The notes under the pieces are model-generated. The model was not told the origin of the DNA. It saw only the letters and a list, made by a program, of their open reading frames with translations, and did not search any database. From IMG/VR virus record IMGVR_UViG_3300008012_000096, positions 1-31,725 of that record: a stretch of 31,725 bases of DNA; one strand, written 5' to 3'. Numbering within the stretch: position 1 is the first letter of the stretch; every line of letters begins with the position of its first letter. Source of the DNA: a virus (Duplodnaviria > Caudoviricetes). The position numbers and the translations under genes were made by a program. Shown here in pieces: positions 863 to 28,575 of the stretch.

Positions 863-2104
863 ATGTCATACAGTATATTTGCAGGAAAACAAAAAAGTTT
901 GGTTTTTCCTATAATGTGTAATGGTTTCTTAACAATTGATTATGCAAAGAATGTTCCTGATGCTACAACATCAGCAGATACTAGTGATGATATTCCTTAT
1001 GGTATTTGGGCGCATAGAGGTTCATTTACATTTGAGGCTATAGTAACGCCATATGATATTAATGGGTCGGGAACATATACTTCTAATCAAGTTCATTTGC
1101 CTCAAAATTTCTCTAAAAAAATATTTCCCGAAAGCGCACAAACAGCCGGATTTGTCTCAACAGAAGAAAGCAGTTTGTATATGTATAAAGGTGAAAGACT
1201 AGACCACAGAATGACATTATTCTATAGCCCAACTTTTCAAGTATTTCTACAGAATGTATCTAAGCATAACTATAGAAATCCGGCAGAATACAAAATAGTC
1301 GTAAAATTAAAACTCGGCAGTAATTCTATTGAAACATTTACTAGCCCTATAGCAATACAGCCAACCAAAGACACATATGTAAAATATTCATCTTCCGATA
1401 CTTTCAATGGATTAGATGCAAACGGCAGAACTGCATTTATAAAATTAGGAGAGTCTGCCGTAGGTTCTTTTGGCTATACCGGAGGAAATATGAATGGAAC
1501 ATTTGTAGTGCATAATAGTGCATTTCCTGTCAATTCAACTGTTCATGGGGCGCAGGATGTATTTGTTAAGGATGGAGATTCTTATTTTCAAATAGGAACA
1601 CTAAAGAATCTAGCCACTACTTTTCTTTCTATTCATCCTAATAGTGGGCCAATTACAGACTATACTTCTCTATTGAATTCCGGAGCAGAAATATTTATTG
1701 AAGCCGAAAAAGATTGTGCATATGTAAATAATCTTTTTCATGTTGCCTGTTCTTATGATGATACCGATAAGAGAATAAATATATTTTTAGATGGTAGTTT
1801 AATATTTACAGGCACTAGTTCTAATACAGAAACATTTGAGTTTTTAAGAGAAAATATGTATATTGGTGCTAATGCTACTGGAACACATGGCGGTGCTTTT
1901 AATGCTATCTTAGAAAATAGGGGAGCAAGAGGGGGAGGAACGAATGCCGATTCTAGTGCAGTAACCAATGAACAATTTATGGGGGAATTACATGAGATGT
2001 CTTTTGTAAATATAGTTAGGAATCAATTTTCTAGTATAACCAATCTCACACCCAACTATGCTAATACTTTGCTTTACCTTAGATTCGAGGAGGTTGATGT
2101 CTAA
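863..2104 (+). CDS. Virion protein with concanavalin-A/LamG-like beta-sandwich
   Basis: LamG-like motifs 'SFTFEAIVTP', 'FHVACSYD...INIFLDG', 'MYIGA', 'FMGELHEMSF'. Confidence 0.7.
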   Translation: MSYSIFAGKQKSLVFPIMCNGFLTIDYAKNVPDATTSADTSDDIPYGIWAHRGSFTFEAIVTPYDINGSGTYTSNQVHLPQNFSKKIFPESAQTAGFVSTEESSLYMYKGERLDHRMTLFYSPTFQVFLQNVSKHNYRNPAEYKIVVKLKLGSNSIETFTSPIAIQPTKDTYVKYSSSDTFNGLDANGRTAFIKLGESAVGSFGYTGGNMNGTFVVHNSAFPVNSTVHGAQDVFVKDGDSYFQIGTLKNLATTFLSIHPNSGPITDYTSLLNSGAEIFIEAEKDCAYVNNLFHVACSYDDTDKRINIFLDGSLIFTGTSSNTETFEFLRENMYIGANATGTHGGAFNAILENRGARGGGTNADSSAVTNEQFMGELHEMSFVNIVRNQFSSITNLTPNYANTLLYLRFEEVDV

Positions 2105-5100
2105 TGGCTATAGATGTAAGTCCTAATACACAGGCCAACAGGGATGAGTCTCCAACAAACCCTAAATTTGCAGATTCATCAATCAGTAATGGAGATTTAA
2201 TGGCTGTTATAATTCAAACACATCCAAGCGGAAATCCTATCTTTACTATAGGTAGTGAACTTTCTAATAAAGCGAATACCAAAGGATTTAGAATAAAACA
2301 TGATATTGATGGTAGTAATCTATTAACTCTATCTTCTTTTGGAACAGTTGATTATTTTGTTTTATTATATTCGGATGACCCTGCTAAACATCATTTTGCT
2401 AAAATAACTAATCTAATAGTAGAAGATAATGGAAACGGAACTACTACTGGAGATGCCTTTGAGTTTGAACCGAGAATGGGTAATGAAATACCAAAAGGAA
2501 CAAAATATAGAGTTATCACCGGAGTAAATAATGATACTCATAATAACTCTATAGTTGCGCTATCAATCGGTTTAAAACAAGAAACTACTTACAATTTAAA
2601 GAATAATATTGTTTGTGCAAGACCGCATTTTTATTTTTATAATAATAGAGAACTAGGAACTTACGCAAACCCTCCGATAGCGGGAGAAAATTCTCACGGT
2701 AAAATAGATAAGGAAAATGAACTAAATCATAATTATAAATACATGGCGACTATAAATTCTAGGACTGGAAACGGAACAATACAAATGGGAGTGAATATTC
2801 CTAATTTTCAGGTAACAGGAACTACGGGGATAGTATTTAGAACACAACAGGATTTTGGTAAAAGAATCATTGATTACAGCAAATTTGGATTGAAGGTAAC
2901 AATGACAGATGTATTAAGAAACATAGATGAAGATGGATTCGGAACAACATCTTCGGGTTCTACTCTACTTAATTATAGTTACAATTTGGGTCAAAGTAAT
3001 ACTATTACTACAGACTATACCGACTATGCAAAAGCATATCCAAGTGCTAAAAGAGTTGCCTCTAATTCTTTAGGTTCTTCTTCTGCTAATCCTAACCTAT
3101 TCAATGCCGGAGAAATTAGATATTTACACTACGATACTTCTCCGAAAAGTGCTAACATAGTTACGGGAGTTTCTCAACATGAGACAGAAGATTCAATAGA
3201 GCAGGGTAGTTTTTCCGAAACTAGAATTATAGATAATGCTAGAATTATGCGAAAAAAGATAGAGGAACATACTCTATACCAAACAAAGCAATTAGTTCAC
3301 ATTGGTAACTTAAACGACTTTGTTGATTTAAAGGCCACATATTCTTCTACTTCATCCACGAATGTATTTGTCTTTGATACTGAATACAACTTACAAACAG
3401 TATTAGGAGTTGGAGACGAAATAAGATTAGGAACTACAATTATGTTAGTAGAGACTGTTAGCGGTTCTTCAATAACAGTAAGAGCAGAAAAAAGAGAAGC
3501 AGGAAAGAATACATTTACTTCTGTTGCTTTTACTCCAACTGTAGGAGATACTCTACAAAGAAGGGCTTTAGATTATACAAACCAAAGAATATTCACAACT
3601 ATGGATTTAAGTGGTGGAGTTGATAAATTAGAAATACTTTTTACATCTGGAAATCTTAGAAATTTATTTGGAGAAGTCACAGCAAAGAATATTGACCAAT
3701 CAACTTTAACTTTTAATGGTCTTTTAGAAAATAATGACTTTAAAAGTTATTATGGGGTAGAAGCAGTTAAGTTTGCTAAAGGAGAATATAGAGTATTTTC
3801 TACAAGATTCACTGGAGAAGTAGAAGAGATTAATCAAGTAAAAGAAGAAGGTCAAACCTATTTAGATATAAAAGGAAGAGACTCGATGAATAAACTTCTT
3901 TCTCCTGTAGTGAATAAAGATACAGTATTTAGTGAGGACATTATTTATTCTAGTAATAGTCCGTATAATAAGTTAGGTAATATAAAAAGCGGAAACACAT
4001 ACAGTTTATCCCTCGGTGCGACTACTCTTGATACTAATATATTAGACGGTGCAAATAATTCATTAAATGGTTCTAATTTCGACAACTATCCCGTTGTTGG
4101 AAGTGATTTATTTAGTGAAAATGGATATATAGGTAGAGTAACTGCTGTTGATGTCCATAATACGGATAAGGCGAGTTTTACCATAACTAGAGCATTAACT
4201 AGAGTCATAAATGAACCAATTTATGTAGAAACCGAAAGAAACTATATATTTACAAAGGCATTGGGTTCTTCTCATATTACTTCAATCTCGCCCACTTCAC
4301 TAATAGGTTCTTCAAACAAGGGGGTTATTTTTACAGCAGGTAACATAGCAGGAGACTTTGATACTGATGGAGATAATTCTGTTGATACTGACGAAGGCGA
4401 TACCTTAGTCAATGCCTCTTCTTTTGGTTCATTTAACTTTACTACTGGAAAATACACCACTACTGATGAAAGGGCTGTAGGTTTTCAAATCCATGAACCA
4501 TCTAGTATAGCAAATGACAATGCATTTCAATGTAAATTAAAAGATGAAATGGGTAATAATGGATTCTCTAGTTTTAACACAGTAGATACTTTAATAGATT
4601 TTGAAGTTGTTTCTACGACTAAAAAAGATAACATAACTGAAATAGAATTAGCACCATATATGCCTTTATCATTGGGTAGAAAAATAAGATACGAAGGGGC
4701 AGTTAATGATAGAATAGAAACAACATATGTTCAAGCAGGGATAGTTTCATCAATAAACAATGTCGGAAGAGTTAGTTCTTTTATAACGAATTCTCTACAT
4801 GCTTCAGTAAAAATAGGCGACCCGCTATATGCTCAAAATTTTGACCAATCACAAACCTTAGACAAAGGTTTTATTGGATATGTTCAAGATATAATTGTAT
4901 TAGATGAATCTGCTAATCTAAGAGGCTCAAATAATCCTTCAAGCAATACTGCAAAACGACGAGTTATATTAGACAGAACAAATATTAACGATGCCGATGG
5001 TAATTTAATATTAGAATTTGATATTAATGATGTTATTTTCGCTTCTGTTAGAAAAAGAAATCATATGAATTTTATAAATTCAGCACATCTTTGGGGAGGT

Positions 5101-8100
5101 AAAATGGTGACGATACCTCATCTAAGAATTTCTCAAGATACAGGTGTTGGGCTAGTTCCTTTCAATATGAATTTAAACTCTAGTGATTTAAATAAAGAAT
5201 TAGGTATGTTGATATACAAACCATTCAATTCCGATACTAGAAGACTAGGGCATGAAAAATATTCATTTGTAGAACAACCCGCTTCTACTAATATAACGAG
5301 AAATCAAATATATGATATTAGAGAACATAACTTTACTAAAAACTTTACATCGTATCAGTTTAAACCAAATGTTAATTCCGGATTAAATAATGTTATTGAA
5401 GAAAATAAAACAGACAGTAATAATAAAATACCATACGATATGAGAGGAATGAGTAGTCCGTTTGGTTCTAATGTTACTGTTCATAATAGAGTAAATAGAG
5501 GTGCTAATTTTAGTGGTGCGCCCATTCAAACCCGCATAGATTCGTTCTCTCCTATAAATTACATTTATGAAAGTAAAGACCATTCATTTTCTAGATTATT
5601 TTTATATGTAACTACAGATATTCTACCTCCTCATATAAGCAGAAATACTAGTTTGTTTTCTAGTAATAAGACTATTAATAATTATAAACTTCTATTGACT
5701 GATAATACTAATAAAACTAACAATGATAATATAATTTTACAAGATTCTAATTATCAAAGTCTTTCCTTTACTACCGATGTTGTTCTTTCTAATCTTGTTA
5801 GTTTCAATTTGATGAGATTAACTGAATGCGTATATGATGAAAACTTTATTTTGATTAATCCTGAAAAAAAGACAGATGATATTCTTATTAATACTCCTTC
5901 TACTTTTGAAGAGAGAATATATCAAAGAAGCCAAATAACAGGAAATAGCATAAATTCTATTGATGGAACAACCGACCAAATATCTTTTGTTAATCCAATA
6001 TCTTTTGATGGAGGTGAAACTATTTATTCTGCTGATGGTAGTTTTATTGGTGTTGTTAGTGGCCAACATAATAATCAAACGACCATACAATGTGACACTA
6101 GTTTCAAAGTTCACACTCCTAATTTCTCTCAATCTCATTCCAATCCCGTTAAAGTTAAACAATTCGCAATAGCAACAGTTAGAGGGAGAGATAAAACAGA
6201 CAGTATAGATGCGTCTCCTACCAATAAATACCATCCATTAAAAGGTGCTATTATTCCTAAAGATTTCGATAGTAGTCATCCACAAAATTCTAATTACGAT
6301 TATGGAGAATTTAGCGGTGACTATGCCTATGCAAAAAATGGAGGTAGTGCAATAACATTACTTCAAAATTCGGAAGTAGTATTGCCTAGTATTTATCCCA
6401 ATGGATTATTTACTAGTAGTTCTTATGTTTCTACTACAAATGGAGCAGTAATAGTTCCTAGAGGTGAAATGCTACAAAGTAGCAAAAACAATCCATATGG
6501 AGGAACAATAGGTGTTATTTTAGATAGATACGGAATAGAAGATTCACACCATAAGTTAGAAGCAGGTAATTGCACAGGTGTTTTAGGAAATAGTGTAGGC
6601 GGAACAGCAATAGGAAGCATTGGCGGTTCGGGAGTAGAAATAGTTACAGTTAGGGCATCTACTCATTTTAAGCAGTTTTTTACATCTAGCGATACTAGCA
6701 CACATGATTATGGGACTAGCGATTACCGTTCTCCTGCTGATGGTGCTTATTTAGGATTTAAACTTAGATTATTTTACAATTCTTCTTTATCGGGTATGTC
6801 AGCAAGTGTTCCACATATTTCGTCTTCGGGTAATATATTTAAAACTGCTATAAGCCCACAACATTCTGTTAAAAGTGCTTGGCTAGCATATGTTGATTTA
6901 ACCGGATGTTACTTAGTTCCCGAAAGCGGTTCACCGACAGAAAACTCGGTAGATTCTATAATAGGAGTGAAGACAACCCCAATTTATGTCTATGCTCATG
7001 AAGTAACAGCAGGAACTACAACAGTGGAACTTTATACAGAATCGGCATTAACCAATGGTACTGCATATAGAATAATGCAACCCAATCCAGTTTGTATGTA
7101 TGAATTTTCTCCCGAAACTATTGAATTATTCGTTCCTAGAGGAGAATACACAAAAAAAGCAAATAGTGATGAAATGTATGGGAAGCAAGAAAATAACTAT
7201 TTCTTTAACGAAGGTAGTAGGCAGTTTGAAACCACCAACGAAGCCGTTTTGTCTATGTATGTTCCTTTAGATATACATAAGAATGTAGGAGGCACTACTA
7301 TTTTATCCGACATAGTTCCGAAAGGAGATTATGATTTATTGTTCAGTGATGGCGATGAGTCTTTTAAGTCGCCCACTAAAATAAATATCATAGATTCTGC
7401 TAAAACACTGACAATCAAAGACAAAAAGAAACTAAACGGAGTAATATCGGTTTCCGAAACCTTTGTAGTGAATTCATTAGAAGAATTAAAAATAAATCCA
7501 AAAAGAGCGTGTATCGGCTCTACTGTTACAATAGCCGACGAAACAGAAACTATCATTAATGAGATATTTGAAGAAGAAGGTATAGAATTTACTAACACTG
7601 TTCCCACATATCCATTATTTATAGCACCGGAGTTTAGAGGGGTTTCTGCTTTTACTGCTATTAATTTCCTACTTAAGAGAAAAGACTTAAGGTTATTAGA
7701 AACAGAAGGGGTCTTTTCTGTAGTTCCTCATAGGGATTCTAGTCTAGTAACAAACATACTTATTGATGATGATAAGTTGATAGAGTTTCAATCTACTAAA
7801 ACAACATTTGACTTTTATAATGAAGTTATTGTTTATGGTGCGTCGCATAAGGGTATTAAAAGAAATTTGAACAGTATAAAGAAAATAGGTAGGAAAACTT
7901 TGGAAGAAGTTGATTCTAGTTTAATTACCCAACAAGATGTAGACGAACAGGCTTCTAGGCTTTTAGACTTACACGGTAATCTAAACATAAAGCACAAAAT
8001 AAAGGTAATACCAACAGGTGTAGAACAAGTAAAAGCAGGAGATATAATACAATTTGAATCTAAACAAGAAAATATCGGACTATCTAATTTCTTAGTATTG

Positions 8101-8421
8101 AATGTAAATCACGAATTGTTCGGCTTTGTTACTTTAGAAATAGGAAGATACTCTAAAAGATTAGAAGATGTATTTTCAGAACTATTACTTAAAACGCAGA
8201 ATAATGCGAATAAAAACAGGTCACAAGACTATATATCAAAAACCCCTTCTTTAGATTTCTTAGAAAAAATTAAGGTTAAGCCAATCTCTCTAACCATTAG
8301 AAAAAGAGAAACTTCGGGAACAACACTAGGGTTTACAACAACACTAAATACAAACACAACCCCACTAGGTATAGGTGGTTCTAGCACAGCAACCTTGCTG
8401 AAAGAGGAGGACTTGATATGA
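2104..8421 (+). CDS. Very large tail tip / baseplate hub-like protein (2105 aa)
   Basis: Hub-like segments 'FTGEVEEI...LDIKGRD' and C-terminal 'YNEVIVYG...VKAGDIIQF...FLVLNVNHE...TLEIG'; Ser/Thr/Asn/Gly-rich beta inserts; located in the tail module. Confidence 0.65.
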   Translation: MAIDVSPNTQANRDESPTNPKFADSSISNGDLMAVIIQTHPSGNPIFTIGSELSNKANTKGFRIKHDIDGSNLLTLSSFGTVDYFVLLYSDDPAKHHFAKITNLIVEDNGNGTTTGDAFEFEPRMGNEIPKGTKYRVITGVNNDTHNNSIVALSIGLKQETTYNLKNNIVCARPHFYFYNNRELGTYANPPIAGENSHGKIDKENELNHNYKYMATINSRTGNGTIQMGVNIPNFQVTGTTGIVFRTQQDFGKRIIDYSKFGLKVTMTDVLRNIDEDGFGTTSSGSTLLNYSYNLGQSNTITTDYTDYAKAYPSAKRVASNSLGSSSANPNLFNAGEIRYLHYDTSPKSANIVTGVSQHETEDSIEQGSFSETRIIDNARIMRKKIEEHTLYQTKQLVHIGNLNDFVDLKATYSSTSSTNVFVFDTEYNLQTVLGVGDEIRLGTTIMLVETVSGSSITVRAEKREAGKNTFTSVAFTPTVGDTLQRRALDYTNQRIFTTMDLSGGVDKLEILFTSGNLRNLFGEVTAKNIDQSTLTFNGLLENNDFKSYYGVEAVKFAKGEYRVFSTRFTGEVEEINQVKEEGQTYLDIKGRDSMNKLLSPVVNKDTVFSEDIIYSSNSPYNKLGNIKSGNTYSLSLGATTLDTNILDGANNSLNGSNFDNYPVVGSDLFSENGYIGRVTAVDVHNTDKASFTITRALTRVINEPIYVETERNYIFTKALGSSHITSISPTSLIGSSNKGVIFTAGNIAGDFDTDGDNSVDTDEGDTLVNASSFGSFNFTTGKYTTTDERAVGFQIHEPSSIANDNAFQCKLKDEMGNNGFSSFNTVDTLIDFEVVSTTKKDNITEIELAPYMPLSLGRKIRYEGAVNDRIETTYVQAGIVSSINNVGRVSSFITNSLHASVKIGDPLYAQNFDQSQTLDKGFIGYVQDIIVLDESANLRGSNNPSSNTAKRRVILDRTNINDADGNLILEFDINDVIFASVRKRNHMNFINSAHLWGGKMVTIPHLRISQDTGVGLVPFNMNLNSSDLNKELGMLIYKPFNSDTRRLGHEKYSFVEQPASTNITRNQIYDIREHNFTKNFTSYQFKPNVNSGLNNVIEENKTDSNNKIPYDMRGMSSPFGSNVTVHNRVNRGANFSGAPIQTRIDSFSPINYIYESKDHSFSRLFLYVTTDILPPHISRNTSLFSSNKTINNYKLLLTDNTNKTNNDNIILQDSNYQSLSFTTDVVLSNLVSFNLMRLTECVYDENFILINPEKKTDDILINTPSTFEERIYQRSQITGNSINSIDGTTDQISFVNPISFDGGETIYSADGSFIGVVSGQHNNQTTIQCDTSFKVHTPNFSQSHSNPVKVKQFAIATVRGRDKTDSIDASPTNKYHPLKGAIIPKDFDSSHPQNSNYDYGEFSGDYAYAKNGGSAITLLQNSEVVLPSIYPNGLFTSSSYVSTTNGAVIVPRGEMLQSSKNNPYGGTIGVILDRYGIEDSHHKLEAGNCTGVLGNSVGGTAIGSIGGSGVEIVTVRASTHFKQFFTSSDTSTHDYGTSDYRSPADGAYLGFKLRLFYNSSLSGMSASVPHISSSGNIFKTAISPQHSVKSAWLAYVDLTGCYLVPESGSPTENSVDSIIGVKTTPIYVYAHEVTAGTTTVELYTESALTNGTAYRIMQPNPVCMYEFSPETIELFVPRGEYTKKANSDEMYGKQENNYFFNEGSRQFETTNEAVLSMYVPLDIHKNVGGTTILSDIVPKGDYDLLFSDGDESFKSPTKINIIDSAKTLTIKDKKKLNGVISVSETFVVNSLEELKINPKRACIGSTVTIADETETIINEIFEEEGIEFTNTVPTYPLFIAPEFRGVSAFTAINFLLKRKDLRLLETEGVFSVVPHRDSSLVTNILIDDDKLIEFQSTKTTFDFYNEVIVYGASHKGIKRNLNSIKKIGRKTLEEVDSSLITQQDVDEQASRLLDLHGNLNIKHKIKVIPTGVEQVKAGDIIQFESKQENIGLSNFLVLNVNHELFGFVTLEIGRYSKRLEDVFSELLLKTQNNANKNRSQDYISKTPSLDFLEKIKVKPISLTIRKRETSGTTLGFTTTLNTNTTPLGIGGSSTATLLKEEDLI

Positions 8422-16671: not shown

Positions 16672-17586
16672 TCACACCCATGTATCTTGTAGAGCATCTT
16701 CACAAATACCGAAGTAAGAACAATTGGTGCATATATTTGCATAGAACTGTCTAGCCTTGAATTGTTTTTGTTCATAGGCACGAATTAGTTTCGCTATATT
16801 ATGCATAACTGCTGTAGTGGAACGCTTTTGGACTTTTTCTGTAAAAACAAAATCCGAAGCAGGATAATACCAACCCCAATGTGTTACTTCCATATCTTTA
16901 GATAGTCCATATTTTTCTAGTATTTCTTCTTCACAATTCTCAATCATAAGTTTATAGAAAGCCATTTCTTTCCTCATAGAAGTTTTCTTTGCAGGACTAG
17001 TAGACCAAGCCCCTGTTTTATATTCAAATGGTATTAAATTACCATCTTCTATAAACACCCTATCAATGATACCTTGAAGATGAACAACATAATCTCTTTC
17101 TAATGTAAATTTAGGATGTATGTCTTTTGGTATTGTTATTTCACAATCAAATAATTCTTCATTGATTATCGGCAAATACTCATGAACTTTTCCTTCTGTT
17201 CTTGCATCTAAGTATCTTTGCGCTTCAAAAGCCGCTACTGTTAGACTAATATCAAAATAGTCATCTACAGGCATTAGGCTAGTGCAGTAATCCAATACTT
17301 CAGTTGCATTCATGGCTTCTGCCTTTTTAATATCAAATACATCAAAGAATTCCTCTCTAGAGTTATGCAGAATAGTTCCCTTCTTCATGGCTTCTGTTTG
17401 GTCTTGTGGCCTTCTTTCAATATAATTAAATTGATACTTTTTAGCACACCAATCGAAACTACCCAAAGAAGATTTACTTATCTTCAATATTGGCTGTGAC
17501 GGGTCTTCGTAATTTTCCGGTTGCCAATCATAAGTATATTCTTTCATGCTTGCTATTCTTGCTTTATATTTTTCATCGTTATTCAT
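16672..17586 (-). CDS. Cas4/AddB-like PD-(D/E)XK exonuclease with Fe-S cysteines
   Basis: 'ISKSSL..FDWC', 'GTILH', 'GIIDRV', 'EYKTG', C-terminal 'CTNCSYFGIC'; ATGA-coupled start 17586 (track 17631). Confidence 0.88.
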   Translation of the reverse strand: MNNDEKYKARIASMKEYTYDWQPENYEDPSQPILKISKSSLGSFDWCAKKYQFNYIERRPQDQTEAMKKGTILHNSREEFFDVFDIKKAEAMNATEVLDYCTSLMPVDDYFDISLTVAAFEAQRYLDARTEGKVHEYLPIINEELFDCEITIPKDIHPKFTLERDYVVHLQGIIDRVFIEDGNLIPFEYKTGAWSTSPAKKTSMRKEMAFYKLMIENCEEEILEKYGLSKDMEVTHWGWYYPASDFVFTEKVQKRSTTAVMHNIAKLIRAYEQKQFKARQFYANICTNCSYFGICEDALQDTWV

Positions 17587-17816
17587 TTTAATTCCCCTCT
17601 CGGTTTGCTTATTCCACCGGCTAATACCCAATCGTTATAATTTTCTTTATCTCTATAATCTTTAATTTCCCATTCAAGAAAATCAATTGTCATTAATAGA
17701 TGGTCTATAAATGAAAATTCACCCAAATGGTTTTCTGTATCTTCAACTATTATATCTTCATAATGTTTCATCATTCTCTCTTTTAATTTATTTAATTCTT
17801 CTCTATTCAAAACCAT
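17583..17816 (-). CDS. Hypothetical protein
   Basis: Fills the gap between PolB-C and the nuclease with overlaps at both ends; start uncertain (track 17867). Confidence 0.55.
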   Translation of the reverse strand: MVLNREELNKLKERMMKHYEDIIVEDTENHLGEFSFIDHLLMTIDFLEWEIKDYRDKENYNDWVLAGGISKPRGELK

Positions 17817-18700
17817 TCCTCCAGTGTCTTTTGTGTTTTTCCTGTTCTTATCGCTGATAAATCCCAACCCATAGCCTTGTAAATCGGTTTTGCTTTATCT
17901 ACTATTTGTTCAGCATAGTGTTTATAATCAGGATTATAACTTTCAAAGTCTTTTAATTCAACACCTGCTACATATTCTACTTGTCTGTTTTCTTGAGTCA
18001 AAGGATGAGTAAAGGTATCTCTTACACCAGTTACTTTCATAGAAAGATAAGAGTCATCAAAATCTTTATTCTCTTTTTCCCAAGCAAACAGAACGCCCGC
18101 TATTCCGGAACCTATTGATGGTTTTTTTCCCTCTAGAGTTTGAAACCTAGTTGTCGGAGTGGAGCATTTATTACAAACAGAATATTCTAATTTAATACAA
18201 TCTTTAAGATGATATTTAGTTCCACATTCCGGACATTTGACATTAAATCTATTAGCCCGTAGTCTGCTTCTTTTTACAATATCCTTCAAATCAATATTCC
18301 CCGACAAAGCACTATCATACCTATCATGAAGGGCTTTATTGATTTGTTCTCTTGATTCAGCATTTACCCATCTTTTCAATACATCCAATTGAGTATCTTT
18401 AGCAAAGCCAGTTTCACTGACTCTTTTGGCAGTAAAGCCAGTCATTGTGAATTCCGGCTCATCTAACCATTCGCCATCTTTCCAAGTAATCATTCCTGCG
18501 TTTCTGTTTTTAGTTGTTCCCACTCCTAAAGAGGAATAGTATTTTTCAAACTCTAATACTACAGGATGTTCGTTCAATCCCATAATATTGGGGAAGTGTT
18601 TTCTTACACTATCCTGTATATCCGCACAAATCATTTGTGCTTTCGCTACAGAATCTACTTGAACATAGATTGAATCTGTGTGTCCGTAAACTACTTTCAT
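17807..18700 (-). CDS. polB: Family B DNA polymerase, C-terminal subunit (motif C, palm/thumb, Zn-finger insert, PIP box)
   Basis: Starts MKVVYGHTDSIYV; 'LEFEKYY', 'KNRNAG', 'DYKHYAEQI'; ends with PIP box QKTLEEWF. Confidence 0.92.
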   Translation of the reverse strand: MKVVYGHTDSIYVQVDSVAKAQMICADIQDSVRKHFPNIMGLNEHPVVLEFEKYYSSLGVGTTKNRNAGMITWKDGEWLDEPEFTMTGFTAKRVSETGFAKDTQLDVLKRWVNAESREQINKALHDRYDSALSGNIDLKDIVKRSRLRANRFNVKCPECGTKYHLKDCIKLEYSVCNKCSTPTTRFQTLEGKKPSIGSGIAGVLFAWEKENKDFDDSYLSMKVTGVRDTFTHPLTQENRQVEYVAGVELKDFESYNPDYKHYAEQIVDKAKPIYKAMGWDLSAIRTGKTQKTLEEWF

Positions 18701-18704
18701 ACTA

Positions 18705-18965
18705 TCACTTCTTAGAGTAAGTTAGTATAGGGAAATAGTGCGCTTCAAAACCATTATGTTTCTTATTTAGATAATCTTCAATTTCTAAAACTGCCTTCTT
18801 AACTCGCATGGCTTGTTCTAGTTCTTGGCTAACATCATCTAAGTCGCTTTCCAATACTCTAATTTTCTTTTCTAGTCTTTCAGTTTCCTTTAAGGAAAAA
18901 TTTGTTAATCTTTCCATTTTCTTTTCCAATTCTTCTATTTTCTTTTTCATTTCTTCGTTATTCAT
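18705..18965 (-). CDS. Coiled-coil hypothetical protein within the polB split
   Basis: 86 aa with heptad pattern; GGTGA SD; ATGA overlap. Confidence 0.7.
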   Translation of the reverse strand: MNNEEMKKKIEELEKKMERLTNFSLKETERLEKKIRVLESDLDDVSQELEQAMRVKKAVLEIEDYLNKKHNGFEAHYFPILTYSKK

Positions 18966-19093
18966 ACTATCACCGTTACTATAGTTATGATGGTTGCTAT
19001 GTTTACGATATTTACCATCATCAATATCTTGTTACTTCTTGCTATCATAGCGAGCAATTCTTCTAATAATTGATTAGTTCTGTCCATCATCAT
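18962..19093 (-). CDS. 43-aa tail-anchored membrane micro-protein (not in track)
   Basis: MMMDRTNQLLEELLAMIARSNKILMMVNIVNIATIITIVTVIV*; GAGGT SD; coupled to the next gene. Confidence 0.65.
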   Translation of the reverse strand: MMMDRTNQLLEELLAMIARSNKILMMVNIVNIATIITIVTVIV

Positions 19094-19223
19094 AATGATA
19101 CCTCGCTTTAAGTGAATTAATTTCTTTTTTCAAATCATTGATTTCTATACTTAGTTCGCCTACCCATTTCCATAGCCTTTTAATTTGGGCTTCATGGCTT
19201 AAACTATCTGCTACATTACTCAT
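19074..19223 (-). CDS. 49-aa coiled-coil micro-protein (not in track)
   Basis: MSNVADSLSHEAQIKRLWKWVGELSIEINDLKKEINSLKARYHYDDGQN*; GGAG upstream; overlaps both neighbours. Confidence 0.6.
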   Translation of the reverse strand: MSNVADSLSHEAQIKRLWKWVGELSIEINDLKKEINSLKARYHYDDGQN

Positions 19224-19374
19224 TTTTATCTACTCCTTGTTCGATATCAATGATAACAGCATTACGCTTCAAATTATTCATCATTTGAAATATCTCCTCT
19301 ACTTCTTGTAGAGTAATTTCCCATGTTTCTTGTGTGTCATAATTGACTTTTACTGTTACATATTTGGTTTTCAT
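19216..19374 (-). CDS. 52-aa micro-protein (not in track)
   Basis: MKTKYVTVKVNYDTQETWEITLQEVEEIFQMMNNLKRNAVIIDIEQGVDKNE*; GGTGGTGA SD and ATGA overlap. Confidence 0.65.
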   Translation of the reverse strand: MKTKYVTVKVNYDTQETWEITLQEVEEIFQMMNNLKRNAVIIDIEQGVDKNE

Positions 19375-19574
19375 GTCACCACCCTGTATCTGTTTTCTTT
19401 TATTTTCTCCACATTATCTAATCTAGCGAGATACCACCCTATTGCTGAAACTGAACCAATATATTGGCTTGTTCCATATTTAGATACTATCTCTTCCAAT
19501 ATCTTATTAGAAGAAAATACATCTTCTCTAGTTCCTACTGCTTCTCTTATCCATCTTTTAAAAAAACTATTCAC
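19371..19574 (-). CDS. Small putative winged-helix protein
   Basis: 67 aa; helix-helix-helix-wing pattern 'FSSNKILEEI...SVSAIGWYL...VEKI..NRYRV'; GTGA overlap. Confidence 0.55.
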   Translation of the reverse strand: MNSFFKRWIREAVGTREDVFSSNKILEEIVSKYGTSQYIGSVSAIGWYLARLDNVEKIKENRYRVVT

Positions 19575-19693
19575 TCTTCTTCACCACACTTTCTTGATTC
19601 AATTAAATCCAAAAACGCTTCATGTTCACATCTTTTACAATGATACTTTCCTTCAAATTCAGGTCTGTGTATTTTTGGTTTTTTACATTTCAT
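19571..19693 (-). CDS. 40-aa Cys/His zinc-finger micro-protein (not in track)
   Basis: MKCKKPKIHRPEFEGKYHCKRCEHEAFLDLIESRKCGEEE*; stop/start overlaps at both ends. Confidence 0.65.
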   Translation of the reverse strand: MKCKKPKIHRPEFEGKYHCKRCEHEAFLDLIESRKCGEEE

Positions 19694-19944
19694 TCATTTT
19701 CCTCCTTTGGAATTAAAGGTGTAGGTACTCCGTCTATTATAGACCAATGTTCAAATTCTTCATTTGGGTCAGGATTAATTACAGGAATTAAGTTAGAAAA
19801 CTCTCTAAGAGAACATTTCATGCAATAACCGTTCATTAATCCTTTAATAATCCATGAAGGGGAATCTTCCCCCATAGACATAGGCTCACCTATTATTCTA
19901 GTTTCGCAGTTTTTGAATCTGCATTTTCTACCTTCTAGTTTCAT
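19690..19944 (-). CDS. Cys-rich hypothetical protein (putative Zn finger)
   Basis: C-x4-C ... C-x2-C; ATGA overlap with the PolB-N stop. Confidence 0.65.
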   Translation of the reverse strand: MKLEGRKCRFKNCETRIIGEPMSMGEDSPSWIIKGLMNGYCMKCSLREFSNLIPVINPDPNEEFEHWSIIDGVPTPLIPKEENE

Positions 19945-21605
19945 ACTTCCAACTCCTTAGCCTTGAATGCGGCTAATCTAATTGCTTCTCTAGCACTAGC
20001 AGTAATACTAGCGGCTAGAGTAACATTAGCCCAACTAAATCCTTGAAAAGCAACAATGCCATAAAAAGATGCCATTAGTCTCTTAACTGCCATTTGATTA
20101 TTGTGCCATTTCATATACTCACCGTTTGGCTTCCCTCTAGCCTCTTTCATTTTGGCTTTATAATCATTCCTAAGTTCCTTCAATTCTAATACTGCTTTTG
20201 GTAATAGACCCATTTTATCAGTTTTGAAATAAACCATTTGTTCTTGGGTTGTTTCACTAAAATCTCTAGGTGTTAGAATATTCACACCAAAGGCTGTTGG
20301 TTCTTCGCTAATAGTTTCCCAAGATATATTTCTTGCTATCATCATAGAAGGATATAGTCCGGCAAAATCAAAAGCGGCTACATTGAAATGTAATCCATTT
20401 GTTTCTTCACTTAATGGGTCGTAAATCATAGCGCCTTCATATTCTTGTCTTTTCTCTACTCTTTGTCCTGTTGGTGCTTTCCACCAAGCATTTCTCATAA
20501 AATAAATAGAACCCATATGACTAGCATAAAAACAAGCATCAAATGGTGCTTTTAGTAGTCTTTGTAAAGAAACAATAGCATCACTACAATAATTCTTTTC
20601 ATCTAGTTCTACAATAAGTTCTACATCTTTTAAAGCATATTCAAGATAAGTTTCTGTATCTTCTAACCAACCCCTACGATAAAACTCATTTGTATCGCTA
20701 AACTTTTCGGAAACCAATTTCTTTTTATTGAGTGCTATTTGTCCAATATAATCAAGTGCTAAAGAAGGTAGCGTTCCCCTTTGAGAATCATTCCACTGTC
20801 GCTCAAAAGCCAAGTCTAAATCGAGGGTTATGCGGCCTCCTATGGGCTGTTCTATCGGGGAGAATCCTTTGTCGGCATAAGCAAAACTGTAGCCTTTCTT
20901 GGTCTTTTTAACACCCTTAATTGTGCCAATTGGAGACATTATGTTAGGGTTTAATCCTAAAGCACATGCCCTGTCCAATAACTTAGGAACATCAGCGAAG
21001 TTACCAAACCATGCAATTAACATATCGGGGTCTTTTACAACCATAGTTGTCATAAAGGATTGAATCATGTCTTTTTCATTATCATACAAAAATAGTTCAT
21101 TATTTTCATAATCGGTGTAAACTGATAAATCAAACTCTTGATTAGGACACCATACCCACTGGTAATATTTCTTATCATAATTATCATACATTACAATAGT
21201 AGTAATCTTATCGTGGTGTTCTCCGCCTTGTTGCCATTCCATATCCCAATACCATTTTCTCAAATTATATTCGGGCATATCATCAATACAATCAACTGCG
21301 TATCTAAAATGAAAAGGAACATCTGCTTCATAAGTTCTTTTAAACATATTTTTCGCTTTGCTAACATCGAAGGATGATTCTACTATTACCTTCTTTAGTT
21401 TAACACCATCTAGATTTACCCAATCACCACGAATATACTCAAAGTCTCTAGTAATATATTTAGAGGCTTTATAGGATGGAGGCTCTCTAGAATCTTCTTC
21501 AACATAAAAGTAAGGAGCAAAGGAAACAGTCTTGTGTTCCTTTTTACCGTTTTCTCTCCACGAAAGATATATCTTATCTCCTTCATTTGTTCTGCTTATA
21601 ATCAT
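19941..21605 (-). CDS. polB: Family B DNA polymerase, N-terminal subunit (N-domain, 3'-5' exonuclease, motifs A and B)
   Basis: 'PYFY', 'YEADVPF..RY..D', ExoI 'DMEW', ExoIII 'YALKD', motif A 'DFAGLYPS', motif B 'KRLMASFYG'; ends before motif C. Confidence 0.93.
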   Translation of the reverse strand: MIISRTNEGDKIYLSWRENGKKEHKTVSFAPYFYVEEDSREPPSYKASKYITRDFEYIRGDWVNLDGVKLKKVIVESSFDVSKAKNMFKRTYEADVPFHFRYAVDCIDDMPEYNLRKWYWDMEWQQGGEHHDKITTIVMYDNYDKKYYQWVWCPNQEFDLSVYTDYENNELFLYDNEKDMIQSFMTTMVVKDPDMLIAWFGNFADVPKLLDRACALGLNPNIMSPIGTIKGVKKTKKGYSFAYADKGFSPIEQPIGGRITLDLDLAFERQWNDSQRGTLPSLALDYIGQIALNKKKLVSEKFSDTNEFYRRGWLEDTETYLEYALKDVELIVELDEKNYCSDAIVSLQRLLKAPFDACFYASHMGSIYFMRNAWWKAPTGQRVEKRQEYEGAMIYDPLSEETNGLHFNVAAFDFAGLYPSMMIARNISWETISEEPTAFGVNILTPRDFSETTQEQMVYFKTDKMGLLPKAVLELKELRNDYKAKMKEARGKPNGEYMKWHNNQMAVKRLMASFYGIVAFQGFSWANVTLAASITASAREAIRLAAFKAKELEV

Positions 21606-22397
21606 TTAATCACCACTAACGAAAGGTGCTTTCAATAGTAGTCTATCATTTGAAACAATCAGTAGTGGGAATTCGTCTTTCATGTATATGTTTAGCATTT
21701 GGCCTTTTTGGAAAAACTTGTGAATAGGGCTTGAAAATTCTAATGTTGCCCCACCATCACCTGTTCTAAATACTGGTGTAATAATTTCATCATATTTATT
21801 TGTAGCATTTTGTCTAGAAGAAACTTCGAGTGTTCCTGCATATGGTTCTTCTTTAGATTTATTAAAGTCAAATTTATAGACACCTGTTTTTACAAGTTCA
21901 CAAGTTTTAATTGCATCATTCAACTGTTCTTGAGATATTGTAAATGCTACCTCAAACTTAGACTTACCAAAATTGAATAATACATTCGGGTTAGGGGTAT
22001 AGTTGATGTGAAGTAGCATATTCTTTAATGTCTCCAAAGCCTGTTCATTAGGATGATTTGTAATCAAAGGAACTGAAGCCTTCTTTCTACCACTAGATAG
22101 AGACATGAAGTCATCAACATCTACTACTGTATTCTCTCCAAAAGAATTTAGGTAAGGTATAACCATACTAACATCTACCACACAATCGCCATCTCTTTCT
22201 CCTTCTACTGTTAAGGCAATCTTAACGCAAAAGGTAGAATCTCCATTCCATATTTGTAGAGTATTTCCTGCCAAAATAATATAAGCACAATGGCCTAAAC
22301 TAGTAATACCAAAACCATTGTTGGTTGTGGACTTACCCTTTACCTGTATGCTATTAATTGCTTCTTTTAGTATTTTACTATCTACTGTGAATTTCAT
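21606..22397 (-). CDS. pcn: DNA sliding clamp (divergent PCNA-like)
   Basis: 263 aa; 'MKFTVDSKILKEAINSI' start, repeated 'FTISQEQLNDAIK', 'PLLI...LLLKAP' end; adjacent to polB, with RFC genes and PIP boxes in the cluster. Confidence 0.72.
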   Translation of the reverse strand: MKFTVDSKILKEAINSIQVKGKSTTNNGFGITSLGHCAYIILAGNTLQIWNGDSTFCVKIALTVEGERDGDCVVDVSMVIPYLNSFGENTVVDVDDFMSLSSGRKKASVPLITNHPNEQALETLKNMLLHINYTPNPNVLFNFGKSKFEVAFTISQEQLNDAIKTCELVKTGVYKFDFNKSKEEPYAGTLEVSSRQNATNKYDEIITPVFRTGDGGATLEFSSPIHKFFQKGQMLNIYMKDEFPLLIVSNDRLLLKAPFVSGD

Positions 22398-26516: not shown

Positions 26517-27382
26517 AAAAATTCCTCTATACTCATTTGTTTTACTGTTATTTTTTCTTTCTTTTTGGGCTTTTTCTTTTCTCCCAAATTAAGAAGCCTA
26601 CACTCGCTATGAGATAGTTTCTTCTTGAAATGGTCTTTCAACATATTATCTTTACATAGTTGTTGAAAAACTCTAACATCTTTCACTTTCAGTTTTCTAG
26701 ATAAACTACGAAAGTTATCTTTGATTCTTTTATCTTCCTTTGCTTTATCAGTTCTAGGTTTTCCTCTAGGTATAACTGCTACGCCACCGCCTTCATGACA
26801 ATAGGCTAACATTTCATAAAAATACCTTTTATGCCACCTTCTCTTTACAGTAGAGTCTATCAAAATTAGCCTAGTCGGGTGTAATACTTGAACTAATAAA
26901 TTAAGAATGCTGTAATCTTTAGGCTCATTGTAAAGAAGCAAATCCTTAATCTTGTCTCTATTCTTGCTTTTCATAAAGGGATAGATTAATTCAAACTCTC
27001 CCTTTTCCATAAGCATCGGAGGTTCACTATTTGGTGCTACTTGTTTTATTTCGTTTTCTAAATGCTTAGTAGAACCTGCTAGTTTTACTTGGCACATCGA
27101 ATGAACCCACTTTACAGATTTCTTATTTATAGAAGTCAAAACCACTTGACCACGATACTGTCTTATGATATTCTTTATCATATCCTTTCGGGGCTTGTAA
27201 TGTATATCTTCTATGATAATACCCCTTTCCACAGGAAATGAACCTAAATCAAAATTTATTTCATCGCTACCATAGAAAATAATAGGGTCATTCACAAATG
27301 TTTTCGCTTTTGTTGTTTTTCCTGTCCCTGTTTTTCCTACTACCAATATTGCTCTTTTTTTATTTATATTTTTTAATCCCAT
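26513..27382 (-). CDS. rfcL: Degenerate RFC large subunit-like AAA+ protein
   Basis: Walker A 'ILVVGKTGTGKTT', altered Walker B 'IIIEDIH', Lys-rich linker and terminal PIP box QMSIEEFL. Confidence 0.7.
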   Translation of the reverse strand: MGLKNINKKRAILVVGKTGTGKTTKAKTFVNDPIIFYGSDEINFDLGSFPVERGIIIEDIHYKPRKDMIKNIIRQYRGQVVLTSINKKSVKWVHSMCQVKLAGSTKHLENEIKQVAPNSEPPMLMEKGEFELIYPFMKSKNRDKIKDLLLYNEPKDYSILNLLVQVLHPTRLILIDSTVKRRWHKRYFYEMLAYCHEGGGVAVIPRGKPRTDKAKEDKRIKDNFRSLSRKLKVKDVRVFQQLCKDNMLKDHFKKKLSHSECRLLNLGEKKKPKKKEKITVKQMSIEEFL

Positions 27383-27777
27383 TATAAAACTCCCTTTATT
27401 TTCATTATTGTTTCTAATCCGTTTAATTGTTTATGCTTGCCTTCTATTATGATTTTTAGTGCTTGTTTAAAACCCTCTAACTTATCGTTAGCATCAGGTA
27501 AATCTGGAATTAGTGCAATTGTGTTAGTTATGTTATTTAACCCAGTTATTTTTAATATAGGTCTTGGGCTATTATTGGATTCTTTTTCTTTTATATTACA
27601 ATCCACTAAATGCTGTTTCAAAGAACGGCTGATTGCTTCTAAGAAACTCATGTTTCCTCTTATTATTATTTTAGGGCTTATCCTATATCCTATGGAAAAC
27701 CTGTTGTTTTCTTGAATAGAAACTGAAAAATTGCCTTTGCTCAATAAGATTCCTACTATCATATCTTTACTATACAT
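27382..27777 (-). CDS. Single-motif LAGLIDADG-fold protein, probably catalytically inactive
   Basis: 'MIVGILLSKGNFSVSI...IGYRISPKIII...FLEAI', late 'H....GLE.I..IK'; acidic active-site residues missing; start refined from track 27786. Confidence 0.68.
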   Translation of the reverse strand: MYSKDMIVGILLSKGNFSVSIQENNRFSIGYRISPKIIIRGNMSFLEAISRSLKQHLVDCNIKEKESNNSPRPILKITGLNNITNTIALIPDLPDANDKLEGFKQALKIIIEGKHKQLNGLETIMKIKGVL

Positions 27778-28132
27778 GACTATCACACAAATGATATCCT
27801 AAATATTCGTTCTTAAACCTCAAGAAATCTAATCCGTCTGCCACTAATTTCTTAATTGTATCTTCTATCATTAGAACTTCTCCACCGAAAACAAAAGAAA
27901 CACTCGTTCCTTGAAATGATTTCATAGCAACGGCCTTTTCTTCATCAATTTCATCAGTTACAATTAGCATGGGACAAGGATAACTTTGCTTATCTTTTAG
28001 CAATTGAAACATTACTCCTCTCATTAACATAGTAACATCCTCTTCTTTTATTATTCCATAAACTATGAAATTGAAACTAGTAGCGTTACCATACAAATCT
28101 ATCCATTCAATGATAGTTTCATCATCATACAT
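27770..28132 (-). CDS. Hypothetical protein
   Basis: 120-aa ORF in operon with GGAG SD. Confidence 0.65.
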   Translation of the reverse strand: MYDDETIIEWIDLYGNATSFNFIVYGIIKEEDVTMLMRGVMFQLLKDKQSYPCPMLIVTDEIDEEKAVAMKSFQGTSVSFVFGGEVLMIEDTIKKLVADGLDFLRFKNEYLGYHLCDSHV

Positions 28133-28137
28133 GGCAA

Positions 28138-28575
28138 TTACTCCTTAAAGAATACTTCATTATCCTTCCAATATCCTCTAGGTAAATTGTTTGTTTCTAG
28201 CCAAAAGAGGTCTGCGGCTGTTATTCGTTTCTTACCACGACTTATAGCATTTTTCTCACCGTTTGCTATTAGATTAGCAACTGCGGTATCTACCCATTCT
28301 ACTAAAAACCGCTTTGCTGTATTCGATACTGTCATGTCTGTGCTTTCTTTTACAATCTTAGATATGTTTATTCTAGTTACCATCCTTTTCTTCTTCGGTT
28401 GTTCCGGAACAATCAATTCATTGTCCTTGATATAAGGACAAAGTTCTCTTTTTTGCACTAATGCTCTACCTTTGTCATGTAATATGTTTTTTAGATAAAC
28501 ATTATCATCACTATCTATTCTAATACAACGGTATGTCGTTGTGCCTATTATTGTCATATCTCCTACTTCTATCAT
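28138..28575 (-). CDS. Histone-fold protein with an N-terminal beta domain
   Basis: C-terminal 'ISKIVKE...TVSNTA...A..RGKKRITAADL' aligns without gaps to the archaeal HMf-type histone fold as recalled. Confidence 0.75.
   Translation of the reverse strand: MIEVGDMTIIGTTTYRCIRIDSDDNVYLKNILHDKGRALVQKRELCPYIKDNELIVPEQPKKKRMVTRINISKIVKESTDMTVSNTAKRFLVEWVDTAVANLIANGEKNAISRGKKRITAADLFWLETNNLPRGYWKDNEVFFKE

Follow-up and report, generated by a model that had tools for sequence, protein, structure and literature searches.

There are several described family B DNA polymerases (PolBs) that consist of two polypeptides. In group B magroviruses, the DNA polymerase gene is split within the catalytic domain, as reported for seven genomes (Philosof et al. 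2017, PMC5434244). The PhiKZ polymerase, whose structure has been solved, is a stable and active 1:1 complex (bioRxiv 10.64898/2026.09.30.755723), and the halves of a split Pfu polymerase also form 1:1 dimers (PMC3061061). Here we describe a split PolB gene on a 31,725-nucleotide stretch of viral DNA (Duplodnaviria; Caudoviricetes; positions 1 to 31,725 of IMG/VR record IMGVR_UViG_3300008012_000096), the whole of which is called the window below. The two parts of this gene, PolB-N and PolB-C, are separated by a 1240-nucleotide gap that carries seven small open reading frames (ORFs).

An initial annotation, prepared from the letters of the window, proposed that the enzyme is a non-covalent heterodimer, pointed to split PolBs in magroviruses, and suggested that the split point is a hotspot for gene acquisition whose chain of coupled genes may set subunit stoichiometry. 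The best explanation of our findings as a whole, to which we assign a probability of roughly 85%, is that this PolB would function as a non-covalent heterodimer, that the genes in the gap would be passengers that are gained and lost rather than subunits, and that their chain would reflect ordinary operon architecture. Judged by the split in the catalytic domain, the replication module and the monophyly of the split forms, the gene is best classed with the split replicative PolBs of group B1-type magroviruses, and the earlier pointer to magroviruses was correct, since such a split was published for group B1 in 2017 (PMC5434244). A comparison with a phage collection gave matches to haloviruses only, and from the literature alone the host would be Marine Group II (Poseidoniales).

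The position and age of the break

PolB-N is 554 amino acids long (19941..21605, on the minus strand, as are all features of the window described below unless stated otherwise). It includes the N-terminal domain, the 3'-5' exonuclease, motif A, the fingers with motif B, and the helix preceding motif C (Pfam PF03104, E 6e-10; PF00136, E 1e-20; phrog_262 profile positions 16-560). PolB-C is 297 amino acids long (17807..18700) and comprises the motif C hairpin, the remaining palm, the thumb and a C-terminal QKTLEEWF (PF00136, E 6e-8; phrog_262 positions 574-729). Thus, the PF00136 profile is divided between the chains, with positions 38-193 on PolB-N and 222-350 on PolB-C. The QKTLEEWF terminus resembles a PCNA-interacting protein (PIP) box. 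The initial annotation read the end of PolB-N as AAFKAKELEV followed by a stop codon and the start of PolB-C as MKVVYGHTDS, and it placed the catalytic Asp residues of motifs A and C on separate polypeptides; both observations are confirmed in the sequence. Asp413 of motif A (FDFAGLYPS; 20367..20369) lies on PolB-N and is conserved without exception in the 40 aligned N halves. Asp9 of motif C (YGHTDS; 18674..18676) lies on PolB-C, where H7, T8 and D9 are invariant in 40 of 40 aligned rows, and it aligns to D542 of chain 1qht_A via the fused relative P0122. Motif C (18674-18685) carries His where many PolBs have the first Asp, and this is the same in split and fused relatives. Two deep loci have YAHTDS in place of YGHTDS.

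To collect relatives, viral contigs were scanned four times with polymerase sequences as queries (best 80 of 557 matches, all 4, all 27, and best 80 of 556), which gave 191 loci (L001-L191). Separate halves are present in 124 of these, including the two YAHTDS loci, which were added by hand; 23 have a fused gene and 44 are too short to judge. There are 104 distinct gaps among the split loci, and these form the basis of the per-interval counts below. The break occupies the same position in all 124 loci with separate halves, at a Gly turn ahead of motif C. The junction is KVKEMGYEICYGHTDS in fused P0122 and, elsewhere among the fused relatives, KAQELGYEVIYGHTDS, and each aligns residue for residue with both split ends, such that the Gly-Tyr turn of the fused forms is replaced in the split forms by a tail of 0-4 residues, a stop codon and a new Met. 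Counted on the alignment via P0122, the break corresponds to G533/F534 of chain 1qht_A, eight residues ahead of Asp542. The tail of the N half is variable, with 33 different strings for the last six residues among the 104. Because the 23 fused relatives align across the junction, the halves are, by sequence comparison, complementary and no part of the polymerase is missing. The proposals that the halves abut with essentially nothing lost and that the split point is fixed are therefore upheld.

PolB-N and PolB-C are 49% and 38% identical to the corresponding parts of P0122, the latter over the length of PolB-C. For PolB-C, the ratio of nonsynonymous to synonymous substitution rates (dN/dS) is 0.13, and the identities of N and C halves among relatives are correlated (r 0.89 over 4560 non-independent pairs). 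In a tree of 27 C-half sequences, which sampled 16 of the 104 split forms, all 16 form one clade (ultrafast bootstrap (UFBoot) 100) with fused P0122 as sister (UFBoot 98), and a tree of N halves supports the grouping of split forms with P0122 (UFBoot 100). The best reading of these trees is that the split arose once. A search with PolB-C among longer proteins, which was a weak search, scored no fused form, and the best 120 of 840 near-length matches to PolB-N are all 539-561 amino acids long; fused forms were found in the representative library only.

Swapping of halves between lineages was considered and rejected. The strongest case, L077, has an N half 97% and a C half 55% identical to those of L075, and it belongs to a reciprocal pair on one 185-kb contig that is probably an assembly chimera. 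L077 was kept among the 104 intervals, and L077/L264 resemble such a chimera. In addition, L172 is a mosaic with a donor switch inside PolB-N near residue 350, outside the gap, and the N and C halves of L049 are closest to different relatives.

Turnover of the genes between the halves

The 104 gaps range from 118 to 2819 nucleotides and are distributed 38/33/33 among the three frames. A total of 554 ORFs were called within them, with a median length of 57 amino acids and 1-10 per gap, and these fall into 76 families and 80 arrangements, with no universal family. Pooled dN/dS values are 0.03-0.47 across the 12 families tested (non-independent pairs), and by their sequences the gap ORFs behave as real genes. 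The content is nevertheless not random. There is a core of four, comprising a membrane peptide (88 of 104 gaps), a coiled-coil protein (70), a 52-amino-acid protein (69) and a winged-helix protein (61). This core is absent from the deepest branches, and some gaps hold a single unrelated gene. Thus, one break position with variable content, as the initial annotation had anticipated, is what the relatives exhibit.

Other cargo includes DNA methylase, GNAT and CoiA-like genes. Genes for HNH or T5orf172/MUG113 nucleases are present in 9 of the 104 gaps, where they are the first gene of the chain in 7 of 9. They mostly lie directly after the PolB-N stop codon and occur in distant branches (L029:3777-4505, L083:4185-4802, L151:7719-8546, L039:8654-9241, L186:7965-8588 and L158:8086-8574). 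Homing of these genes without an intron is possible. The gap of the window contains no nuclease gene by Pfam or PHROG search, and so the earlier statement that no homing-endonuclease motif is visible is true of this gap but does not extend to its relatives.

Cargo is not confined to the gap. A small conserved gene located just upstream of the fused PolB, after the clamp gene, in L085-L108 has a homologue with 63-77% identity in the gap of L021, and therefore cargo moves among operon sites and lineages. A link of the 52-amino-acid family to genes near a RadA-like gene, suggested by single-linkage clustering, was rejected, as it consists of one BLAST link (E 5e-5) that a profile search did not support. 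In two distant lineages, the gap is filled by a protein of 563-735 amino acids without a Pfam match (L082:8929-11136 and L055:5980-7671).

The small genes of the window

In the window, the gap is occupied by ORFs of 84, 40, 67, 52, 49, 43 and 86 amino acids, in order from PolB-N to PolB-C. The initial annotation described it as fully tiled and chained by stop/start overlaps. The ORFs cover 1236 of 1240 nucleotides, and seven of the eight junctions overlap (-4, -4, -4, -4, -8, -20 and -4, where the -20 junction becomes -17 or -14 with a later Met as the start). However, the last junction is a 4-nucleotide gap, and PolB-C has its own Shine-Dalgarno (SD)-like site. This site, the gap and the ATG codon of PolB-C occupy 18696..18712, and 13 of these nucleotides recur exactly at the start of the 86-amino-acid gene (18961-18973).

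The first ORF encodes an 84-amino-acid protein with four Cys residues (19690..19944), a possible zinc binder that is rare cargo (3 of 104 intervals, including one deep branch) and has no Pfam or PHROG match. It is followed by a 40-amino-acid Cys/His protein (19571..19693; dN/dS 0.18), a possible zinc finger found in 41 of 104 intervals, with a copy elsewhere in the operon in two loci. The spacing of Cys residues agrees with the two zinc fingers proposed earlier, although neither protein is matched by Pfam. The 67-amino-acid protein (19371..19574; GTG start; dN/dS 0.19) was suspected to be a winged helix-turn-helix protein. Its AlphaFold2 model consists of three helices and a hairpin with a predicted local distance difference test (pLDDT) score of 90, and Foldseek gives weak matches to the winged helices of Rok, forkhead and cullin proteins (best E 0.017), which makes that assignment probable.

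The conserved 52-amino-acid protein (19216..19374; dN/dS 0.12) is modelled as an extended-helix-extended structure, and a fold search with this model gave no clear match (best Z 5.8). For this and the 43-amino-acid protein, the ESM Atlas returned hypothetical clusters only (best scores 0.88 for the 43- and 0.78 for the 52-amino-acid protein). The 49-amino-acid coiled-coil ORF (19074..19223) is found in only 1 of 104 intervals and is a recent insertion of 130 nucleotides (19094-19223), located where the following gene has its start codon. Comparison with L002 shows a clean 130-nucleotide indel, and run X4 holds a co-occurring variant without this ORF (joint 19093-19253). The 41-43-amino-acid membrane peptide (18962..19093; dN/dS 0.10) has an amphipathic helix followed by a C-terminal membrane helix. 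The membrane anchor noted earlier is supported, with a hydropathy of 2.34 across 19 residues in the near-identical L001 copy. The last ORF encodes a fast-evolving coiled-coil protein of 86 amino acids (18705..18965; dN/dS 0.31) that matches phrog_3550 (unknown function; E 1e-5). In run X4, joints within 18700-18961 skip this gene and coincide with the 13-nucleotide repeat of SD sequence and ATG; they may stem from a variant with a deletion, from a relative or from the mapping itself. Six of the seven ORF families of the window have pooled dN/dS values of 0.03-0.31, with the 84-amino-acid value derived from one pair; the 49-amino-acid ORF is a singleton and hence falls outside this measure.

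Alternative explanations

One alternative is that a conserved micro-protein is an accessory polymerase subunit, such as the membrane peptide serving as a replisome tether or the 52-amino-acid protein as a bridge. The membrane peptide occurs widely and has a mean column identity of 88% in 21 rows, and among 78 new loci found by searching with it, 67 carry it between PolB-N and PolB-C, 9 are truncated at one side but consistent with this position, and 2 lack a PolB. Yet 16 of the 104 intervals are without it, the deepest branches among them, and in L081 and L082 it lies between other operon genes. A broader profile did not detect it anywhere in two split-PolB records that are 96% and 100% complete, and its matches in 3 of 3 fused-PolB records were weak (E 1e-4 to 4e-3); a narrower profile at E 1e-3 did not find it in fused loci, and it was found once in four partial records. 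The peptide is therefore neither required by nor, subject to the weakness of the matches in fused records, limited to the split, and the 52-amino-acid gene is missing from 35 of 104 intervals, which leaves the subunit hypothesis improbable. A second proposal, compatible with a heterodimer and made in the initial annotation, is that the coupling chain is maintained to set the ratio of N to C subunits. The chain itself is real and probably used. Of 658 called junctions, 648 lie within -30 to +10 nucleotides and 391 are -4 or -1, and an unbroken chain of SD-led ORFs from the PolB-N stop codon to PolB-C is present in 59 of 97 real intervals compared with 1 of 485 shuffled intervals. Reinitiation in Haloferax is driven by short overlaps and disappears once the spacing reaches about 22 nucleotides, and subunits of complexes are enriched for short overlaps (PMC10666635). 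However, the same strict test finds unbroken chains between RFC genes (35/61), between the Cas4-like gene and a 143-amino-acid gene (65/82) and between the RadA-like gene and the clamp gene (85/101), so the chain is not peculiar to the split. Other operon junctions are far less chained (0/57 and 3/76), and therefore chaining is not uniform along the operon. Moreover, the number of genes in the chain ranges from 1 to 10, only 41 of 104 gaps have a -4 or -1 overlap at the last junction, which is a +4 gap in the window, and an SD match of at least 4 letters precedes PolB-C in 84 of the 104 gaps, as it does at 298 of 2080 random positions. Because chains are equally or more frequent at other operon junctions, a role in stoichiometry is unsupported, and we consider it unlikely.

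Another possibility is that the two halves are rejoined as one polypeptide, because the gap is an intron (group I, group II or archaeal bulge-helix-bulge) or a spliced or bypassed coding gap. The exact meeting of the halves at the break would fit this idea, as would the nuclease genes of related gaps and a 13-nucleotide near-repeat on both flanks of the gap in the window (18691-18703 and 19935-19947). This repeat consists of an SD sequence, ATG and a Lys codon, and collapsing it yields an ATGA overlap rather than an in-frame fusion; target-site duplication and ribosome hopping were rejected on the same grounds. An Rfam search of the whole window at gathering thresholds returned zero matches, and pairing between cognate junction ends is no stronger than between non-cognate ends (-9.45 versus -9.75 kcal/mol). 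The length and frame of the gap are free, the N tail varies, PolB-C has its own start codon and SD sequence, and the gap is tiled by variable protein genes. Splicing is thus disfavoured, and we regard rejoining at the RNA or ribosome level as very improbable. Protein trans-splicing by a split intein, a pseudogene or an assembly artefact can be given almost no weight. Fractured PolB genes with split inteins do exist (PMC2677866), and one related contig looks chimeric (L077/L264). But PolB-N stops 0-4 residues past the last homologous residue and PolB-C begins on a homologous residue, and so there is no space for intein parts. The same break recurs in 124 loci under purifying selection, and the arrangement of the gap is recovered in a 2546-nucleotide contig of run X4, a run not marked as a possible source, that covers 17456-20001 with a single differing letter, so that this is not the misassembly that the initial annotation had listed as a possible refutation.

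A model for the split polymerase

Because the intein, intron and misassembly readings are unsupported, a non-covalent heterodimer is the most likely form of the enzyme, and it is probable by the precedents of PhiKZ, Methanothermobacter thermautotrophicus, split Pfu and gp43. Comparison of split and fused forms shows that, in a single ancestral break, a stop codon and a new start codon took the place of the Gly-Tyr turn that links the final palm helix to the strand of motif C. Both halves would be translated from a long replication operon in which every gene has its own SD-like site, probably assisted by termination-reinitiation at short overlaps. As in the known two-chain enzymes, the halves would assemble 1:1 via the shared palm sheet, with PolB-N supplying the exonuclease, Asp413 and fingers, and PolB-C supplying Asp9, the remaining palm, the thumb and the clamp-binding tail. 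The break would also have made a new stop/start junction at which small genes were then gained and lost. Such events probably occur by recombination at short microhomologies comprising SD and ATG sequences, and sometimes with nuclease genes. The gap genes would be real proteins from the pool of viral replication operons, rather than polymerase subunits.

Several observations weigh against this model. Most close relatives retain the four-gene core, on which purifying selection is strong, and thus these genes are useful somehow, perhaps for replication. Pure neutrality would allow empty gaps, yet there is not one among the 124 loci. The caller used for ORF chains is biased toward short junctions. 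The N-half tree places P0122 among deep split branches at low support (UFBoot 48-60). Finally, RNA contigs from two of four listed RNA runs (six and three short contigs) touch both halves and stop short of the junctions.

A cysteine-rich insertion in the thumb

The split C halves carry an insertion of roughly 40 amino acids with four Cys residues in the thumb, whose span from Cys156 to Cys179 lies at 18164..18235 in the window, where the alignment with P0122 has a gap. By alignment, at least four thumb Cys residues occur in 95 of the 97 split C halves of full length, in 0 of the 24 closest fused (magrovirus-like) proteins and in 1 of 66 other fused PolBs. There are 46-71 residues past the KRSRL motif of the thumb in split C halves versus 11-12 in fused magrovirus-like proteins. 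Across 40 rows, C156 and C159 never vary, while C176 and C179 are almost invariant. Given the Cys spacing and weak matches to zinc-ribbon Pfam families (E 0.018-0.036), we infer that the insertion binds zinc. A second Cys4 insertion, just ahead of motif A, is found in P0121 and, by pattern count, in 31 of 104 split N halves, and is absent in the window.

The split and the thumb insertion mark the same single branch and therefore count as one event, which in itself shows no causal link. The insertion might clasp the two halves. A bolder and rather doubtful idea is that both are one innovation, wherein the zinc ribbon clasps the C half to DNA or to either the exonuclease or the palm of the N half in place of the covalent link, much like the tails derived from mobE in Aeh1 NrdA. 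The resulting stability would have freed the break to serve as the main landing site for genes in the clade, a site that free-standing nucleases directly behind the PolB-N stop codon would have opened and would still visit. If the ribbon does hold the halves, this would show how an essential enzyme survives a break in its active site with neither splicing nor extra tails, and constructs of PolB in two parts could then use a clean cut site provided by nature.

The surrounding operon

The neighbouring genes form an archaeal-type replication operon. By Pfam, they encode an RFC clamp-loader ATPase, ERCC4 and PD-(D/E)XK nucleases, an ATP-dependent ligase and a DnaQ-like exonuclease/RNase_H_2 protein, and PHROG matches indicate a processivity factor and a Sak4-like ATPase. 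The labels primase, single-stranded DNA-binding protein and helicase are tentative, with at best weak matches. The PCNA-like sliding-clamp gene (21606..22397; phrog_947, E 1e-7) lies directly upstream of PolB-N, and no ORF is inserted between them in any of 103 split loci. In the 54 loci that span the intervals under comparison, the richest is the PolB gap, with 5.3 ORFs and 65 families; the interval between clamp-loader genes has 2.2 ORFs and 29 families, that behind the Cas4-like gene has 1.0 and 19, and that from the clamp to PolB-N has none. The suggestion that the split point is a hotspot for gene acquisition is therefore well founded. In fused relatives, similar gene clusters lie elsewhere, with 4.1 ORFs between the clamp and PolB (14 loci) and 5.9 between the loader genes (8 loci).

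A scan for promoters and terminators with a bacterial model found 13 promoter-like sites where 19 were expected. Upstream in the operon are a 145-amino-acid protein with a weak histone-fold match (28138-28575; PF00808, E 0.009) and a LAGLIDADG-like gene of 134 amino acids (27382-27786; PF00961, E 0.006). A 2105-amino-acid protein without a PHROG match is encoded on the plus strand (2104-8421) within an oppositely oriented, probably structural block. There are 14 runs from 9 studies, one of them a possible source, that contain half or more of positions 17500-22000. The label is freshwater metagenome for 11 of these runs, aquatic for 1 and marine for 2. The freshwater labels are unexpected for a virus of marine archaea, and perhaps the samples are brackish.

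Comparison with known split enzymes

The split itself was already known, and the main value of our analysis is the clarification that the break is old, exact and of single origin, and that the genes within it are probably passengers. The 104 gaps also document in compact form the arrival and departure of micro-genes in a dense operon of an archaeal virus. The nearest described relatives, the group B1 magroviruses, likewise have a split in the catalytic domain with genes between the halves, as indicated by an arrow explained in the legend of Fig. 2, and the same replication module, and the gene numbers in the legend of Fig. S3 imply 0-5 called genes in this interval (PMC5434244). The available part of that report does not describe the content or turnover of the gap or the Cys4 insertion of the thumb. 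A literature search, with most subscription papers outside its reach, returned no account of the gap anatomy or thumb insertion beyond PMC5434244, and passages of PMC7544198 and PMC10160649 make no mention of the insertion; their supplements may bear on the point.

Other split enzymes resemble this one to different degrees. The T4-like phages include a bicistronic gp43, with halves separated by 2 bp to 3 kb of diverse DNA that has been read as an insertion hotspot (Petrov et al., via PMC3061061). Unlike the PolB described here, gp43 is split at the finger tip, at several positions, and in phages of bacterial hosts (PMC3061061). In phage Aeh1, nrdA is split by mobE, and thus an essential enzyme exists in two pieces without splicing and with a mobile nuclease gene between them. 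However, the new tails at the NrdA break are essential (PMC3045599), whereas this PolB has no such tails and most of its gaps are free of nuclease genes.

PolB1 and PolB2 of M. thermautotrophicus are also split in the palm, and their co-expression gives an active 1:1 dimer. Their break lies some 83 residues past Pfu 467, near 550 rather than near 533 as here, and the two genes are 85 kb apart and uncoupled (PMC3061061). The DNAP-N and DNAP-C proteins of PhiKZ and other chimalliviruses constitute another two-chain PolB, in which the motif A Asp is on the N chain and the motif C Asp on the C chain. In PhiKZ, the fingers belong to the C chain and the split is wrapped by a large palm insertion contributed by both chains. 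In contrast, the break in the PolB of the window comes after the fingers with almost no residues added at that point, and the sole clade-wide addition that we see is in the thumb.

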